Of a DNA stretch of 64,000 bases, positions 8,071 to 49,122 are shown piece by piece. The notes beneath the pieces are model-generated. The model was given only the letters and a program-made list of their open reading frames with translations, did no database searches and was not told the DNA's origin. Source of the stretch: Eledone cirrhosa (Eukaryota); the NCBI GenBank assembly GCA_964016885.1, contig OZ024743.1:317006001-317070000 (forward strand), read 5' to 3'. How positions within the stretch are numbered: the stretch's first letter is position 1; each line of letters begins with the position of its first letter. The position numbers and the translations under genes are program-made.

Positions 8071-8311
8071 TATATATATATAGCACCAAATAATTTCCCA
8101 ATGATTTCTTATGAATGAAACAATTTTAGTCCTGTAGAAGTCATTTCTATAATAAAATGAATATACCTTTACTCTACAAATGCATTCAGTACCTTTTTTT
8201 ACAGTAATCACCTCTTCATATATATTAAGGTCCTACATATGTTTATATATATTTCATCATCATTACATCCAACTTTTTGTACACTTGCATGGGTTGGACA
8301 ATATATGTATA

Positions 8312-17700: not shown

Positions 17701-18396
17701 AAGAGAAGAAAATAATAATAATTGTTTCTACTTTTGGCACAAGGCCAGCAATTATCCCAGTGTATTACTGGTACTTTATTTTATCGACCCTGTAAGGATG
17801 AAAGGCAAAGTTAATAATAGTAAGAAGAAAAGTAACTCAGGATGTTTTTCAATATAACATTTTATTACAAAATATTTTAATATAGAAATATCAAAACAGA
17901 AAACTGTATTAATAGATAACACACTTTAAACTCCATGGTTTATACTTTCAATGACATGTTGAGATAAATGAATTATTTGTGGAGTTGTTTAGCCAAGATC
18001 AACCTTGATTGAGCAAACATACAACCAAAAATATTCCAGTCATAACCATCCTGTCTTATATTTCAGACATAGTGTATCTTGAAGGTGTGAGGCTTAGTGG
18101 TTCAGGTGTTTTGTCTTACAGGCTAATGCACAAGACGCTTTATTTCATGTTGCTCTAGTCCACTCTACTGGGAAATAAATTGCAACGACACTGATGCTTA
18201 ACTGTTTTAGTCTTCACCATTTTCTCCAACATCATATATAATGTGTATATATATAGTAGGTGGATTTCCAATGTTTATCGGGAGGTAACCACAATTAAAA
18301 AAGGTACTCAATACGTTAGTAGAGTATAAGCATAGTATATAGGAATAGTATCTTATAGAAATTCAGTTCAAGTCCTATAGAAGTCACTTCTATAAT

Positions 18397-18570
18397 AATT
18401 GTTTCTACGTTTGGCACAAGGCCAGCAATTACCCAGTGCATTACTGGTACTTTATTTTATCCCCGTAAGGATGAAAGGCAAAGTTAACCTCGGCGGGATT
18501 TGAACTCAGAATGGCAAGGGCCGTAACTCTATGCATCAAACCATGGCGTCCGACCCTCGATACTGCCACC
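18397..18570 (-). mobile_element. tRNA-derived SINE with Meta-like central domain (abundant family)
   Basis: Element strand has B box gagttcaaatccc then gcctttcatccttacggggtcgataaaataaagtacc (family consensus). Full or partial copies near 17720, 20225, 25490, 43560, 44887, 45035, 46675, 47945, 49495, 51810, 56650, 59595 and 63190. Meta assignment is from recall. Confidence 0.8.
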
Positions 18571-19528: not shown

Positions 19529-19579
19529 TATACACAATGATATTAAATAAATGGAAACTATATCTATAAAACCATATTT

Positions 19580-19638
19580 ATTCTATTATATATATTTCAA
19601 TGGCACCAAAACTTTGGTACGCTCTCATCAGATAAAAT
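19580..19638 (-). ncRNA. Type I hammerhead ribozyme (minus-strand arm)
   Basis: Reverse complement reads attttat CTGATGA gagcgtaccaaagttttggtgccatt GAAA tatata TA atagaat. Confidence 0.7.
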
Positions 19639-19767
19639 ACAAAGTTTGTTTTATAAATATTGACATATCCAGGAAAGAGATGTTAACGGTTCAAGTTTTT
19701 CCTGGATAGTTAAGAACCGTTAAGATCTCCTTCCCGGTTATGTCAATATTTATAAAACAAACTTTGT

Positions 19768-19826
19768 ATTTTATCTGATGAGAGCGTACCAAAGTTTTGG
19801 TACCCTTGAAATATAAATAATAGAAT
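19768..19826 (+). ncRNA. Type I hammerhead ribozyme (minimal, PLE-type)
   Basis: Stem I attttat/atagaat; CTGATGA 19775-19781; stem II gagcgtacca..tggtaccctt; GAAA 19808-19811; short stem III; predicted cleavage after AUA at 19819. Confidence 0.78.
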
Positions 19827-19962
19827 TAATATGGTTTTATAAATATAGTTTCCATTTATTTAATATCATTGAATATTATACTCCAGAAAACTGTTGAGTG
19901 CTTCAAATCAGTTACAAACATTTATATTTGTTGAATTACCAACAAATTAAATATCCCTTTTG

Positions 19963-24598: not shown

Positions 24599-25387
24599 TC
24601 AAACAGGTGAGGAAATATTTTGTCTGTGTTCTTTTGGTCCCAAAACAACATGGGCCTCGTTTATCTCTATATTTTGTTGGTATAAAAAATCTAAAACTGG
24701 AACCAGTAGAAGACAAATTGTGGCATTTAGTAACATAAGTGGGCCTGCAAAATATCGATAGTTTGTGTAAATAGAACTAACACCCATATTTATGTCACTG
24801 ACACATGGCTCAATGTTTGTGGACTCATTAAATTGTGTGAAATAAAGATCGTATCCTTGCATACAATCCCTCCTGATAAAATTTCTGTAGAGAAAACAGT
24901 AAGGATACAATTGTGTGATACCATGCCAGCATTTTATAAGGTTAATGTCTGTGGTGGAAGAATTTTGTTGGCATATTTGGTCTGAATTGAATATACGAAA
25001 GTAGTCAGTGAATAGAATTGGTTCGGCATAGATTGACATTAAACCAAAATATATTTCTGCAGTCATAGCAATAGCCAATAAGATAGCAGAAGCTCGGCGT
25101 CCAAGAAATCCAAATCCAAATACTGCAATACAAATAACCAAGCAACCAAGATAAGCTGGCACCACTAACCCACTACAAGGGTGTGACTTTAAAGAGAAGG
25201 CACAAGATATGTTTTCTAGATTACTGCGACAAGAGAGCAACAGCCCTATTCCAAGACCAACTTGTGATAATCCAGCAAAGAGGATAAAGAAGAAAATTAT
25301 CCGAGTTGTGAGTTGGTTACATTTAGCTAAACTGTTATTCTCAGAGACAGGAATTAGCTTTTTATCGTGGAAATTTCCAAGCTTCAT
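24599..25387 (-). CDS. Divergent tetraspanin-like four-TM protein (262 aa, single coding exon)
   Basis: Long non-repetitive open frame from the ATG at 25387 (MKLGNF). Three clustered hydrophobic helices, an ~85-aa Cys-containing loop with N-glycosylation sequons (NSS, NES), a fourth helix and a short tail. Polar residues in TM1/3/4 (Q, E, N) as in tetraspanins. Confidence 0.75.
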   Translation of the reverse strand: MKLGNFHDKKLIPVSENNSLAKCNQLTTRIIFFFILFAGLSQVGLGIGLLLSCRSNLENISCAFSLKSHPCSGLVVPAYLGCLVICIAVFGFGFLGRRASAILLAIAMTAEIYFGLMSIYAEPILFTDYFRIFNSDQICQQNSSTTDINLIKCWHGITQLYPYCFLYRNFIRRDCMQGYDLYFTQFNESTNIEPCVSDINMGVSSIYTNYRYFAGPLMLLNATICLLLVPVLDFLYQQNIEINEAHVVLGPKEHRQNISSPV

Positions 25388-25411
25388 TGTGATATTTTTT
25401 CTACAGCAGAT

Positions 25412-25440
25412 CTGTTGAAAAAAAAAACAACAAAAAATCA
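25412..25440 (-). other. Probable 3' splice acceptor upstream of the tetraspanin-like ATG
   Basis: Minus strand ttttttgttgttttttttttcaacAG|atctgctg; exon would begin at 25411, 24 nt before the ATG, implying an upstream exon. Confidence 0.65.
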
Positions 25441-26080
25441 ATCAAAATTTGTACATCTTTACAAATCAATTAACAAATTATTATTAATCATAATTGTTTC
25501 TACTTTAGGCACAAGGCCAGCAATTACCCAGTGCATTACTGGTACTTTATTTTATCGACCCCGTAAGGATGAAAGGCAAAGTCAACCTCGGCGGGATTTG
25601 AACTCATAATAATGCTTTTATAGCCCTGGTACCCATAAATAATTCTTCAAATGAGATGTCTGTTTACAGTGTGTATGTGATCAGTGTTTACTACTCACTG
25701 TTTAAGGATTAGTTCACCTTGTGGTTGATGTTAGGACAGGTATCCGGCCATAGAAACCAAGTCAAAATACAGATCCATATGAGCAAAACATCGTTACCTG
25801 ACCTGAATTGTCACATGACGAGGCAAACCTTCTAACCCATGCAAGTGTGGAAAATGTATGTTAAATGATGATGATGATAAACACTAATATAAACAGTTTC
25901 AGTGGTTTCAGGTGATTTGGCATTAAAAAGGTTAAACAGAGCATTTATTTATTTTAAAAATTATAGATCAAGATTATTTTAATATAATTTTCTGAACATC
26001 TTGTTCATACGAAGATACTGAGTTAAATCATAGCTAAAAGATTTGTGTGTGTGTGTAATATATATATATATATATATATA

Positions 26081-26525
26081 TATAAACGTTTGAATATGTG
26101 TAATAAGGCCAAAACAATGCAGTTATGGACATAGAAAAAGGAATGCAATAGTGAAAGATATTGATGAGAATTCGTCTTTCACCTTGAATTTATTTAAATG
26201 TCCTTAATTTTCGAGATAATATCTCTTCTTCGGAGGGAAGTAAAGGTCTCAAACCAGCGTCTTTAAATCTCTAGCCAAGCCATGGCTTGGCTAGAGATTT
26301 AAAGACGCTGGTTTGAGACCTTTACTTCCCTCCGAAGAAGAGATATTATCTCGAAAATTAAGGACATTTAAATAAATTCAAGGTGAAAGACGAATTCTCA
26401 TCAATATCTTTCACTATTGCATTCCTTTTTCTATGTCCATAACTGCATTGTTTTGGCCTTATTACACATATTCAAACGTTTATACCTCATTACACAATGC
26501 TTCAAGTGAACTATAACCTCCTCCT

Positions 26526-26530
<5 letters not shown>
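26081..26530 (+). mobile_element. Perfect 404-bp palindrome with hammerhead-like core and tail, family B
   Basis: 26081-26484 is self-complementary about gcca|tggc (26282/26283) with no mismatch found by eye; tail has TGCTTCA (26498-26504); (TA)n on both sides. Confidence 0.75.
26327..26364 (+). ncRNA. Variant or degenerate hammerhead-like motif
   Basis: tccct CCGAAGA a gagat-att-atctc GAAA at TA agga, then AATAAA; U4C core change, an extra A, and very short stems I and III. Confidence 0.4.
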
Positions 26531-30285: not shown

Positions 30286-31876
30286 AATTATTGTGTACAG
30301 TGCTCAGGTGCACTACAACTCATCAAAGGTGCATGTATAGTACATAGAATAATGTACAAATGTCAGGAAAATAAACAGTGTATGAGTCATGATATAATAA
30401 CAATAACAAAATATTGTGCACAGTGCCCAGGTGCACCACAACTCATCAAAAAAGTGCATGTACAGTACATAGGGCAATGCACAAACATCAGTAAAATGAA
30501 CAGTGCACGAGTCATGATACACACATGTGTGCATGTGTATGGAAGGGGTACATCAGGTGTAGTTTTGGCGTATTTTGGGAAGCATGAGTGTCTTAAAGGA
30601 TGCAGTGTCTCGGCAGCTAACAATTGACGCAGGCAGTTTGTTCCATGCTTCAGCAACTCTGAGCGTGAAAAAATGTCTGCGAAAGTCATGGGAGCTGTGC
30701 TGTTTTCTTATCTTGTAGGCATGTCCACGTGTGTTAGACACATGGAGATCAAAGAGGCGCTCAGGGTTGCAGTTGGCGAGATGGTTAAAAACTTTGTGGG
30801 TATTCACCAAGTCCATTGCCAGACGTCGGAGCTTCAATGAATCCATGCCCAGGGAAGCAAGGCGTTCAGAGTATGGTAGGTGTCTGATGGAGGGTATGCG
30901 CTTGGTTGCACGTCTCTGAACAGTTTCCAGGAGGTCAATATTCCGAGCAAGATAGGGGTTCCAGACTGATGATGCGAATTCCAAGTGTGGTCGCACCATA
31001 GCTGTATACAGTTTTAAATAGATGGCTGGAGAGCGGCTAACAAAGGTCTTGCTGAGTGATGCCAAGACACCCTCGGCCTTCTTGACAATCTTAGAGACAT
31101 GCTTTGTCCAACGCAAATCGTTGCTGACAGTAATGCCCAGGTCACGTTCACAAGAGGACTTTTTGATGTCAGTGTTGTGGAGGGAGTATGTGGACGCTGG
31201 ATTTTTCCTTCCAAAATGCATGGTGGTACACTTGTCCACAGCCAGCTTCAGTTGCCAGTCTGTGATCCATTGCTGCATTGTGTCCAGGTCTGATTGTAGG
31301 AAAGAGTTGTAAATTTCAGGATCAGTCCTTTTGATTTTAAGGTACAGCTTGATGTCATCTGCATATTTTAGTACCGTGGCATTCTGTAAGTTGGCATCTA
31401 TGTCATTAATATATGCCACAAACAAAAGAGGACCAAGAACAGATCCCTGTGGTACACCAGATGACATCTCATATGGTGAAGAATGCTGTCCTAGAACCGT
31501 GACTACTTCCTTTCGGCTGAGAATGAAGGATTTCAGCCAGTCGAAAAGATCATCCCTCACACCCATTGCAGAGAGTTTTGCCATAAGTCTTTTGTGTGGC
31601 ACAGAATTAAAAGCCTTAGCAAAGTCAAGGTAAACAACATCCACCCATGAGCCACTGTCAGTGATCCGGGTGATGTCCTCAAGAAACTCGATAAGCTGAT
31701 CACAGCAGCTGGAGTTAGGGATAAATCCAAACTGTGAGGGCCGGATGAGGCTGTGAGAGCTCCAGAAGTTCCAAAGTGTTTCTCTGACACAGGATTCCAT
31801 CAGTTTGGCCATACAGCTAGTAAGACTGACTGGACGATAGTTGACAGGTGACATGCGGTTGCCCTTTTTGAACAGG
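30250..31876 (-). mobile_element. 5'-truncated CR1-type LINE with (TTA)n tail
   Basis: 433-aa intact RT ORF; 3' UTR with a duplicated ~126-bp unit; (AAT)n at 30250-30282 on the plus strand. Confidence 0.95.
30553..31854 (-). CDS. CR1-type reverse transcriptase (truncated ORF2)
   Basis: NYRPVSLTS, QFGF, VVYLDFAKAFNSVPH, SGVPQGSVLGPLLF, YADD, ERDLG, LETVQRRATK, NTRGH, RVAEAWNKLP. Confidence 0.93.
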   Translation of the reverse strand: MSPVNYRPVSLTSCMAKLMESCVRETLWNFWSSHSLIRPSQFGFIPNSSCCDQLIEFLEDITRITDSGSWVDVVYLDFAKAFNSVPHKRLMAKLSAMGVRDDLFDWLKSFILSRKEVVTVLGQHSSPYEMSSGVPQGSVLGPLLFVAYINDIDANLQNATVLKYADDIKLYLKIKRTDPEIYNSFLQSDLDTMQQWITDWQLKLAVDKCTTMHFGRKNPASTYSLHNTDIKKSSCERDLGITVSNDLRWTKHVSKIVKKAEGVLASLSKTFVSRSPAIYLKLYTAMVRPHLEFASSVWNPYLARNIDLLETVQRRATKRIPSIRHLPYSERLASLGMDSLKLRRLAMDLVNTHKVFNHLANCNPERLFDLHVSNTRGHAYKIRKQHSSHDFRRHFFTLRVAEAWNKLPASIVSCRDTASFKTLMLPKIRQNYT

Positions 31877-32678
31877 TGATAAGAGGTTTCTATTTATACA
31901 GTTTTCCTTGCTTGTTATTTAAGAAACTGTTTTGCTGATTTTCCACTCTCAAACAGTTTTGCTACATACATATGAGTAAGATGTAGTCTCCTGACCTGAA
32001 TTGTCTCATAATGTGACAAGCCGTCTAAACCATGCAAGCATGGAAAATGGTCGTTAAACGATGATGATTTATATACACACATACGTATATCTTCACCACT
32101 GTTGGACAGGTTACTATGTTGAGACAAATCAGATCAAGTGACTATGTCTAGCTCATACGGATCTGTATTTTAGTTTGGTTTCTATGGCTGGATGCCCTTC
32201 CTAACACCAATCATGATACAGTCTGGACTGGGTGCTTTATATTGTAGCACCAAAACAACCACCTAATAAAGTGTACTGGGTGCATTTTCATCATGGTACC
32301 AGCACAACCACCTAACAGAGTAGACTGAGTACTTTTTTGTTGAGTCACCAACACAACTGCCTTACAAGGTAGATTGGTGCTTTTGTTGTTGAGTTACCAA
32401 CACAACCACCTAACAGGGTGGACTAGATGCTCTTTATTGTGGCAGGCCCCTAGGAGGGCAGGTGTGGACCATATCCAGCTTTCCATGCACATAAATGTGT
32501 TGGACTGGAAATATATAGCAGGTGTGTGGTGGAGTACATCATCATCAGTTAAACATCTAATTCACACACTCCCAGGGCAGATAGGCTGTCATGCTCTGAG
32601 ACTAGACCAGACAGGAGACCATGTCTAGTTCATACACTTTGTTTTTGTTTCTCTATGTTGGCATAGACTGGATGGAAT

Positions 32679-32720
<42 letters not shown>

Positions 32721-32819
32721 ATTCCATCCAGCCCATTATATATATATATATATATATATATCTTATATATAATAAATAAGAGAGACGGTTTTATTCATAC
32801 ATCTTCATTTTATTATCTA

Positions 32820-32892
32820 ATTCATTATATGTATTTCAAAGATACAAAGGTAGTTATATAATAACCACCTTACACGTTTTCTTCAGATGAAT
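32820..32892 (-). ncRNA. Type I hammerhead ribozyme (minus-strand arm)
   Basis: Reverse complement reads attcat CTGAAGA ...aaggtggtta-ttata-taactacctt... GAAA tacata TA atgaat. Confidence 0.75.
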
Positions 32893-32984
32893 CAAGTTGT
32901 GTTTTTCTATTCATTGATATGTTACTGGTTTAACGTGTCATTAACCTTGCAGTAGCATATCAATGAATAGAAAAACACATCTCG

Positions 32985-33057
32985 ATTCATCTGAAGAAAA
33001 CGTGTAAGGTGGTTATTATATAGCTACCTTTGTATCTTTGAAATACGTATAATGAAT
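32985..33057 (+). ncRNA. Type I hammerhead ribozyme with palindromic stem III
   Basis: Stem I attcat/atgaat (6 bp perfect); CTGAAGA 32991-32997; stem II aaggtggtta/tagctacctt; GAAA 33040-33043; ATACGTAT palindrome; predicted cleavage after 33051; AATAAA at 33063. Confidence 0.85.
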
Positions 33058-34049
33058 TAGATAATAAAATGAAGATGTATGAATAAAACCGTCTCTCTTA
33101 TTTATTTTACTAAAACTCCAGGCAATACTTTACAAAGAACATCCTAAGGAATACAAATGGTAGAGTGCTTCACATCTGTTTATGAAAAGGTCGGCAGATG
33201 TTTGATCAACCAACTTTCATCAACTAAATAATATATATATATTGTGAGAACTGATTTCAAATTGCTGAGACTCACAGAGGAGATGACGAAGGAATGCAAT
33301 GAATGGAGAGATGCTGTACTGAAAAGAACCCATCTAACCCATGCAAGCATGGAAAAGTGGACATAAAAACGATGATGATGATGTGTATTATGAAGTGGTA
33401 TTTAGTTAAACACAAACTATTTTCAGATATGTTTAGAGCAGGGACCCCAAAGGGAATCAATTGGATTTTTGAGTCAAAACCTGACATTTGTATAAGAAAT
33501 GAAAATAGATAAAATAATGGTTTCTGATTTAGGCACAAGGCCAACAATTTAGGTGGAGAAGGAAAGTTGATTAAATTAATGCCAGTGCATTACTCATATG
33601 TGAAAATGTTGATGACGATATATATATGTGTGTGTGTGTGTGCGCACACACACAAATGCATATGTGTAGTTATATTAATAAACACAAAAATGCATACATG
33701 TGTATTAGATCCATAGATGTGGTTGATAGATTCTGCTACCTAGTTGATATAATTAATAGTGAAGGAGGGTGAGGGTGCTCCGAGACCATAGTAACTAGAA
33801 TAAGGATAGGATGGAAGAAGTTTAGTGAAACACTCCCTCTATTGACAACAATTATATATATATCTATAAACATATATATATACATACACACGCATATATA
33901 TATATATATATGACTATATACATATATACACCCCACATACATATATATACACACATACATGCACATATACATATGTATATACATACACATATACATGTAT
34001 ATATATATAAATACACATTTATATATATATATTTGTATATATATATATA

Positions 34050-42338: not shown

Positions 42339-42414
42339 TATATATATATATGAAGTATTTCCGTAGGAAAGGTAAAGGAACAGAGAGTGCTCTATGTAGG
42401 CTACAGAGCTTTTT

Positions 42415-42532
42415 AGTTATGTAATAAATAACATAAGATAATTATTTCATTTACCAGTGGTTTCTTAGATATCTGTCCTCAAAAAACCATTGGTAAATGA
42501 AATAATTATCTTATGTTGTTTATTACATAACT
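42415..42532. repeat. Foldback with 49-bp arms
   Basis: agttatgtaataaataacataagataattatttcatttaccagtggttt / aaaccattggtaaatgaaataattatcttatgttgtttattacataact. Confidence 0.9.
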
Positions 42533-42660
42533 GTATATATATATATGTGTGTGTGTGTGTAAAAGGTAAACAGAAATAACAACACAATCGGTACAGTATA
42601 TGGAAGGGATATATTAGGTTAACGCTTGATATAGCAGGACACGCACACACACACATACAT

Positions 42661-42836
42661 GTGGATTCCCGACGTATATCGGGAGGTGGCCACAGTTAAA
42701 AAAGGTACTCAATACGTTATTATAGAAATGACTTTTACAGGACTAAAACTGTTTCATTCGTAAGAAATCATTAGTACTTTCCTGGTGATTTCTTACGAAT
42801 GATACAGTTCTAGTCCTGCAAAAGTCATTTCTATAA
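42661..42836 (-). mobile_element. Foldback plus tail element, family D (3 copies in window)
   Basis: 51-bp arms 42720-42770 and 42786-42836; tail and arm homologous to 18260-18396 and, in opposite orientation, 8095-8230. Confidence 0.75.
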
Positions 42837-49042: not shown

Positions 49043-49122
49043 ATACCAAAGTTTTGGTACCCTTGAAATATATATAATAGAATAAATATGGTTTTATAAA
49101 TATAGTTTCCATTTATTTAATA
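49043..49122 (+). mobile_element. Truncated copy of family A (3' half of hammerhead plus AATAAA)
   Basis: taccaaagttttggtacccttgaaatatatataatagaataaatatggttttataaatatagtttccatttatttaata matches 19787-19865; between TA tracts. Confidence 0.9.

Follow-up and report, generated by a model that had tools for sequence, protein, structure and literature searches.

The hairpin at positions 32768-33230 is very probably a 5'-truncated fold-back insertion of an endonuclease-bearing Penelope-like element (PLE), in which two copies of the element's terminal repeat face each other head to head within a (TA)n microsatellite; the parent element probably belonged to the Hydra clade. Each arm hosts a hammerhead motif, and the resulting two-strand ribozyme is likely a by-product of fold-back insertion. 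The inverted head-to-head arms, the hammerhead in each of them, the one-sided tail, the (TA)n flanks, the existence of a multi-copy family and the variability of the inner ends all support this notion. The element, hereafter family C, is best read as a decaying PLE fold-back stub, one more of a known sort. Hammerheads placed on opposite strands by fold-back have been in print since 2014, and the present case may serve as a caution for scans which flag "ambisense ribozymes" in animal DNA.

The hairpin and its hammerhead motifs

Two arms of 160 nt, 96% complementary, are joined head to head by a 22-nt spacer (32928-32949), the pivot of the structure, which is rare among related contigs. The right arm (32950-33109, plus strand) is a 5'-truncated element 3' end, part of a pseudo-LTR. 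The left arm (32768-32927, minus strand) is an inverted, 5'-truncated copy of the same 3' end, which faces outward. A tail of about 120 nt (33110-33230, plus strand) extends on the right-arm side only. It starts with a hairpin of the form RCTC-[stem-loop]-TW-GAGY-RCT (33115-33169, plus strand), common to three other PLE-like stubs in the window, that is the whole stretch of 64,000 nucleotides analysed. On the left the hairpin is flanked by a (TA)n microsatellite (32737-32767), which from its sequence is the likely insertion target, and within which a target-site duplication is unreadable; on the right a short (TA)n run spans 33230-33241. An earlier note had described an ambisense hairpin at 32771-33228. 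The inverted arms and the presence of one hammerhead motif per arm have been confirmed, and the hairpin stands, but 33228 corresponds to the end of the one-sided tail, which had been left undescribed, as had the (TA)n sequences at both flanks. Six-frame translation of arms and tail revealed no recognisable coding sequence. Searching the hairpin region against Rfam produced no hammerhead match at the gathering threshold or up to E=10; up to E=10 generic hairpin miRNA models alone were returned, all below threshold. The tail is adjoined on the right by a repeat of very high copy number (33244-33385; depth up to roughly 187,000 in X1) that has no relation to the hairpin family.

The plus-strand motif is a type I minimal hammerhead motif (32984-33058), identified by descriptor scan and folding. 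Six Watson-Crick pairs form stem I (32985-32990 with 33052-33057), exactly as first described, and a seventh pair, G-U, is added by 32984 and 33058. The core, intact as claimed, is made of CUGAAGA (32991-32997) and GAA(A) (from 33040), separated by a stem II region of 42 nt (32998-33039). Stem III (33043-33050) reads ATACGTAT and corresponds to an 8-nt palindrome, AUACGUAU, mostly A-U. Position H17 is A33051, and cleavage is predicted to occur at 33051|33052. The mirror motif on the minus strand, also type I (32819-32893), features CTGAAGA from 32886, H17 at 32826 and a predicted cut 3' of 32826; its core is intact, but the palindrome is broken, stem III reading AUACAUAU, which is non-palindromic. 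A self-complementary stem III is therefore a property of the plus arm (AUACGUAU) and not of the minus arm (AUACAUAU): the predicted self-duplex is worth -6.5 kcal/mol in the former versus +1.0 in the latter. Both arms share CUGAAGA, GAAA, the AUA cut triplet and a stem I of 6-7 bp, the core set of a type I hammerhead. A strict hammerhead descriptor run on the whole window yielded four matches, two in family C and two in a sister element at 19530-19876; by chance, 100 dinucleotide shuffles gave 0.03 on average and never more than 1. The G10.1-C11.1 pair which closes stem II is absent, and A-U pairs adjoin the core instead. The "long stem II" originally proposed is well predicted in its 11-bp upper helix (P 0.77-1.0) and poorly in its lower part, where the three core-adjacent A-U pairs have a P of about 0.01 and G10.1-C11.1 is missing. 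Reading the motif as a minimal hammerhead proved appropriate, since type I topology and a palindromic stem III mark the kind described as dimer-only in PMC4209133.

Folding models, which are predictions that leave out tertiary contacts, point to misfolding of the monomer. In the construct suggested for cleavage assays (32975-33070), stem I and upper stem II form, and the core-proximal pairs and stem III have a P of about 0.01 or less; the monomer hammerhead fold lies 6.2 kcal/mol above the minimum. A double hammerhead of plus arms (-34.7 kcal/mol) beats two monomers (-31.2), but loses to a misfolded dimer (-40.3). For the minus arm, the double hammerhead (-25.6 kcal/mol) is worse than two monomers (-29.8). 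When the RNA of the whole element is folded, the P of every hammerhead stem is 0.0 on both strands (about -259 and -257 kcal/mol). Read-through RNA is thus predicted to form a 160-bp duplex silencing both motifs. The view of the two-strand layout as a functional design is unsupported. A hammerhead-like motif resides in a real hairpin, and its activity in this copy is a matter of prediction; according to the models the copy is likely inert as a ribozyme. A small stem noticed by eye within the spacer is absent from the predicted minimum-energy fold.

The arms differ at 6 of 160 positions, and 5 differences fall within the 157 positions (32771-32927) for which about 5 had been counted before, a figure that holds. 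Three differences generate G-U pairs on the plus strand, one generates a G-U pair on the minus strand, and two are T-T mismatches. The plus-strand wobbles had been pointed out before, and a functional meaning of them is unsupported. Any transition within an inverted repeat yields a G-U pair on one of the two strands, and the skew is for this reason uninformative. The three-to-one split between strands in family C is non-significant (3 of 4 transitions, p = 0.625), and the transitions in the sister element, family B, go the opposite way, none giving G-U on the plus strand versus five on the minus strand. RNA-level selection as the source of the asymmetry was consequently rejected. Two of the four family C transitions face a CpG in the opposite arm.

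Related copies in the window and in public sequence

Sister elements in the window support the notion that the inverted arrangement is one outcome among several. Family B is present as a fold-back (19530-19876, with a tail to 19969) with 163-nt arms, a 21-nt spacer and a CTGATGA hammerhead motif in each arm; the palindromic stem III is kept in the minus arm only, the tail, about 90 nt long, opens with a bulged hairpin, and (TA)n is found on the right. By eye, the spacer (19693-19713) includes a short stretch which is complementary to the left arm close by, a feature that a local template switch would leave. A solo fragment of the same family (49044-49122), cut inside stem II, has (TA)n on either side, and neither inverted arm nor tail. 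Element D (42350-42532, minus strand) has 52-nt arms, (TA)n on both sides and a pivot which by eye falls inside a degenerate hammerhead motif; the motif is found in one arm only, and the tail opens with an exact Hydra-type hairpin, GCTC-stem-TA-GAGC-ACT. Family F includes three copies, one solo with tail (8091-8200), one short-armed (18250-18400) and one 51-nt-armed (42640-42836), in which the 3' half of a hammerhead-like motif is accompanied by a variant of the tail hairpin. The occurrence of solo and short-armed sister copies implies that doubling of the ribozyme depends only on the position of the pivot. An additional inverted repeat (1602-1730), with 50-nt arms placed 29 nt apart and 88% complementary, gave no hammerhead or tail motif in the scans.

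Four of the seven public runs listed were aligned to 32762-33420 at 80% identity. No RNA run was among those listed as containing the element, which speaks neither for nor against transcription. Related contigs, 80-95% identical, were found under two species labels, denoting a diverged multi-copy family. Depth summed over contigs does not measure copy number, and loose matches at 80% identity may gather at AT-rich ends; with this proviso, mirrored depth decreases toward the spacer, starting close to the outer end of the arm, from 6423 to 430 in X1 and from 8566 to 256 in X4 (Spearman -0.98, 8 mirrored bins). At 32948-32949, in the spacer, depth is just 17-18, versus thousands near the outer arm end. 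At least three X1 joints (32803>33083, 32806>33075 and 32810>33082) denote shorter hairpins with other pivots, near 33067-33083. The depth gradient and the differing pivots depict a dispersed, multi-copy family with variable 5' truncation, as PLEs are. Among the matches listed, 7 of 16 pieces traverse the tail and end at 33224-33243, where related contigs often terminate. Two stem II wobbles are replaced by Watson-Crick pairs in alleles of the relatives, through G>A at 33023 (83-84% of depth) and T>C at 33033 (32% of depth in X1, 79% in X4), and the stem III CpG exhibits decay-type variants at the positions mirroring 33046 and 33047. A 220-nt contig from X4 (record 10), about 90% identical with 22 other letters and 2 gaps, runs from the left arm through the spacer into the right arm; it may be an orthologue or a paralogue of the family C locus.

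Origin of the hairpin

The structure closely resembles the insertion unit of EN+ PLEs (Craig et al. 2021, PMC8557442; Arkhipova et al. 2013, PMC3846280), which likewise features head-to-head arms, a one-sided tail, variable 5' ends, a microsatellite target and a hammerhead within the terminal repeat. According to PMC8557442, PLE insertions are 5'-truncated, frequently adjoin an inverted copy of the element and end on one side in a tail of 30-40 bp; inverted pLTRs may or may not have tails, and head-to-head is the usual arrangement (PMC3846280). As an example, an inverted 5'-truncated copy places a hammerhead on each strand of Penelope-13_HM (File S1/S2 of PMC8557442). In Octopus vulgaris, 31 recently active Penelope-like families are reported (PMC13282606). 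Among the literature listed on hammerheads in octopuses, the relevant items were the preprint of PMC8557442 and the giant squid genome. Family C differs from the EN+ unit in having no ORF and a tail of about 120 nt, which exceeds the usual 30-40 nt; both points weigh against the proposed origin. No PLE open reading frame, which would encode a PLE-type RT and a GIY-YIG endonuclease, was linked to family C. Also, the near-equal arms (163 and 160 nt) and spacers (21 and 22 nt) of B and C look more regular than random truncation would predict.

The process can be envisaged as follows. The protein of an autonomous partner would nick the AT-rich (TA)n DNA, and reverse transcription would initiate internally on the element RNA. 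Initiation around 33230 would give rise to the tailed arm, initiation around 33109 to the tail-less one, by analogy with the two starts of the anole PAc element; two internal start sites account for the tail in PMC11167929, where AT-rich cleavage is also described. Copying would then run past the ribozyme, halting about 40 nt upstream of it, and the product would be joined head to head to an inverted copy, which self-priming or template switching may have produced. The presence of a hammerhead on both strands would be due solely to a pivot located upstream of the motif. The ribozyme of the parent element may act weakly, either as a dimer via the 8-nt palindrome or with the help of a protein; according to PMC11167929, the hammerhead is protein-assisted, and dispensable for insertion in vitro.

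The dimer route is the one documented for the minimal hammerheads of metazoan PLEs (Cervera and De la Pena 2014, PMC4209133). These have a palindromic helix III, single motifs remain uncleaved, and dimers are cleaved at a low level (PMC4209133; the dimer model is summarised in PMC6765202); in Schistosoma mansoni, minimal hammerheads lie on opposite strands about 100-700 bp apart (PMC4209133). The family C hammerhead fits in this group, being type I, with a large helix II, a short palindromic helix III and no evident loop I-loop II partner, but lacks the conserved G10.1-C11.1 pair, and the palindrome is 8 nt long and mostly A-U.

The regularity of families B and C could be explained by hypothesizing that a non-autonomous PLE derivative amplifies as a fixed arm-spacer-arm-tail hairpin, mobilized by PLE proteins in trans and double-armed by design. 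The almost equal arms and spacers fit this scheme, as does the constant position of the ribozyme (57 and 58 nt from H17 to the arm end), and the roughly 90% identical X4 contig, possibly a paralogue, spans the family C spacer. Amplification of a fixed unit is hard to reconcile, however, with a spacer depth of 17-18 set against thousands at the outer arm, with the occurrence of other pivots, with the 5' depth gradient, and with the solo and short-armed copies in the window; it appears improbable. Along another line, the stub may have been retained by the host, its hairpin transcript being processed into endo-siRNAs that target the family, or acted upon by ADAR. A 160-bp duplex, 96% paired, would be suited to both roles, and PLE copies yield small RNAs in Adineta vaga (PMC3846280). 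Yet, the arm differences resemble neutral decay, featuring CpG-type changes and T-T mismatches. Retention by the host is unlikely, and would in any case be a side effect which does not compete with a PLE origin.

In viroid-like ambisense circles, the circular monomer holds two different ribozymes, one for each polarity. The hammerhead motifs on both strands of family C and its long rod fold might suggest an RNA replicon of this sort, or a retrozyme-like one, a circular rod cut on both polarities which became integrated in the genome. In contrast to such circles, the family C motifs are not distinct ribozymes but inverted duplicates found in linear genomic DNA. Self-BLAST revealed neither a head-to-tail repeat of the unit in the window nor a monomer junction, the palindrome of the minus arm is disrupted, and read-through RNA is predicted to sequester both motifs. 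The family pattern had no matches in viral contigs, and two in metagenome contigs; the latter, prokaryote-like DNA which fails both hammerhead and tail tests, were discarded as chance hits. An integrated ambisense replicon is extremely improbable. Family C has features of non-LTR retrozymes, being non-coding, PLE-related and provided with a type I hammerhead (PMC7229834; bioRxiv 10.64898/2026.07.22.740005), but retrozymes are defined as tandem units (bioRxiv 10.64898/2026.07.22.740005), organized head to tail, and family C is head to head, self-BLAST detecting no tandem copy in the window.

Assembly or read inversion can generate inverted repeats artificially. The window also holds a loopless perfect palindrome, which lends some weight to this explanation. 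But the six arm differences and the unique spacer of family C speak against it, and the contig crossing the spacer with both arms (X4 record 10) derives from an independent run with another species label, meaning that the hairpin is not a private artefact. The earlier note had set aside a simple read-inversion artefact, and was right in doing so; the chance that the hairpin arose in this way is minimal. The palindrome itself (202 nt, within 26081-26530) contains a hammerhead-like variant core, CCGAAGA (at 26332), on either arm; it is accompanied by a tail of about 45 nt, lies between (TA)n runs, and may be either a very young insertion or an assembly artefact.

Tail hairpin, clade placement and 5' junctions

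The sequence RCTC-[stem-loop]-TW-GAGY-RCT opens the tails of families C and B and of element D, and a near variant is present in family F. Copies map at 33115-33169, 19880-19902, 42409 (minus strand), 18325 (minus strand) and about 8170. Across the five window copies, 4 of 8 predicted pairs are kept with two-sided changes. The pattern was defined after seeing the sequences, post hoc, and its likeness was compared with Hydra ends only. Searched without a stem requirement, it gave four real matches, shuffles giving 0.81 on average and at most 4, a modest excess; with a 2-bp inner stem, four real matches were obtained versus a mean of 0.26 and a maximum of 2 in 200 shuffles. In this stricter form family C drops out, and one match, at 814, is devoid of PLE context. 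A covarying tail hairpin shared by several families is a candidate for the signal which fixes the internal start of reverse transcription.

Among the Hydra consensi of File S7 of PMC8557442, inspected by eye, the hairpin is exact in 3 of 6 and variant in 1 of 6. Hydra-2_Amil and Hydra-2_Ajap have the exact form at the 3' end, Hydra-1_Ajap has it at the 5' start, and Hydra-1_Crog has the variant (PMC8557442). The hairpin was not seen by eye at the ends of Hydra-1_Amil and Hydra-1_Obim, which terminate about 47 and 36 nt past the cut (PMC8557442). Compared to Hydra ends, the match is degenerate in C and B, and exact in D, and the hairpin lies farther from the cut, 64 nt in C and 61 in B versus about 39-48 nt, by eye, in three Hydra consensi. 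The exact 9-mers of families B and C are absent from the Hydra ends in that file, and four B/C motifs had no matches in its Naiad, Chlamys and Hydra consensi, Hydra-1_Obim included.

Other features point to the Hydra clade to different degrees. At the protein level the clade is marked by RWK and DKT motifs, a CxCX5C linker and an endonuclease devoid of CCHH. In family C a U precedes GAAA, as by eye in 18 of 26 Hydra hammerhead rows of PMC8557442. C and B have U15.2-A16.2, in contrast to C15.2-G16.2 in 26 of 26 Hydra rows of the same source, and thus do not conform to the listed Hydra form. Of 27 Hydra families, 26 are recorded as preferring (TA)n (PMC8557442), and (TA)n occurs at both flanks of family C; the trait is non-specific, being shared by many Naiads. 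On the whole, family C is like Hydra-clade PLEs (Penelope-13_HM, Hydra-2_Amil, Hydra-1/2_Ajap, Hydra-1_Crog) in its (TA)n flanks, in the type I hammerhead near the 3' end, in the U before GAAA, frequent in the clade, and possibly in the RCTC-stem-TW-GAGY-RCT-like hairpin past the cut. It is unlike them in the U15.2-A16.2 pair, the AUA triplet, the 42-nt stem II region and the lack of nucleotide matches of the four motifs. The PLE origin of family C can be held with considerable confidence; membership in the Hydra clade is favored with more reserve.

An assignment to the Naiads, the octopus members of which are (TA)n inserters with an "HHR_half_core" (PMC8557442), was rejected, because a full three-stem hammerhead is present in family C, no canonical hammerhead being described for the Naiad pLTR in PMC8557442, and because the four motifs had no matches in the Naiad consensi. 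By eye, the 3' ends of Naiad_Obim, Naiad_Ovul and Naiad_Omin in that source are unlike family C.

The position of 5' junctions relative to the predicted cut deserves comment. Eight of 16 listed pieces (14,187 in all) have at least 19 unaligned letters past the 5' end, and were regarded as real 5' junctions. Among the matches listed, 3 of these 8 start at 33054-33059, that is 2-7 nt past 33051|33052 (p of about 0.006 under a uniform model applied post hoc). Depth roughly halves, or drops further, across the predicted cut site. RAD reads from two runs stop at the positions mirroring 33055 (50 of 52 and 38 of 38 reads) and 33058, the pile-up at the former probably representing one locus. These data could fit an undescribed Hydra-type PLE family in which 5' junctions pile up 3' of the cut because the self-cleaved RNA is the template, and the bulged tail hairpin is a signal for protein binding or for the start of reverse transcription; such a combination appears doubtful. 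Arrest of the reverse transcriptase at the foot of stem I fits the cluster too, and so does divergence among subfamilies. The function of PLE hammerheads is called unclear in PMC8557442, and PMC11167929 reports no RNA-seq reads ending at the hammerhead cut site. Neither the tail hairpin signal nor the clustering of junctions at the cut site was found in print by the literature searches; the supplements of Cervera 2014 and Frangieh 2024, and Lunse 2017, may bear on both. If true genome-wide at single-base resolution, the clustering would represent indirect evidence of PLE hammerhead cleavage in vivo.

Overall, the window consists of AT-rich animal DNA that contains microsatellites and interrupted frames resembling reverse transcriptase; its repeat landscape would fit an octopus host. 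A frame of 446 aa (30553-31893, plus strand), encoding a non-LTR retrotransposon reverse transcriptase, is located about 0.9 kb to the left of the hairpin, and no link between the two was seen. A stop-free frame of 280 aa (24599-25441, minus strand), tetraspanin-like by eye for its several hydrophobic stretches and a cysteine-rich loop, is possibly an intronless host gene or a retrogene.
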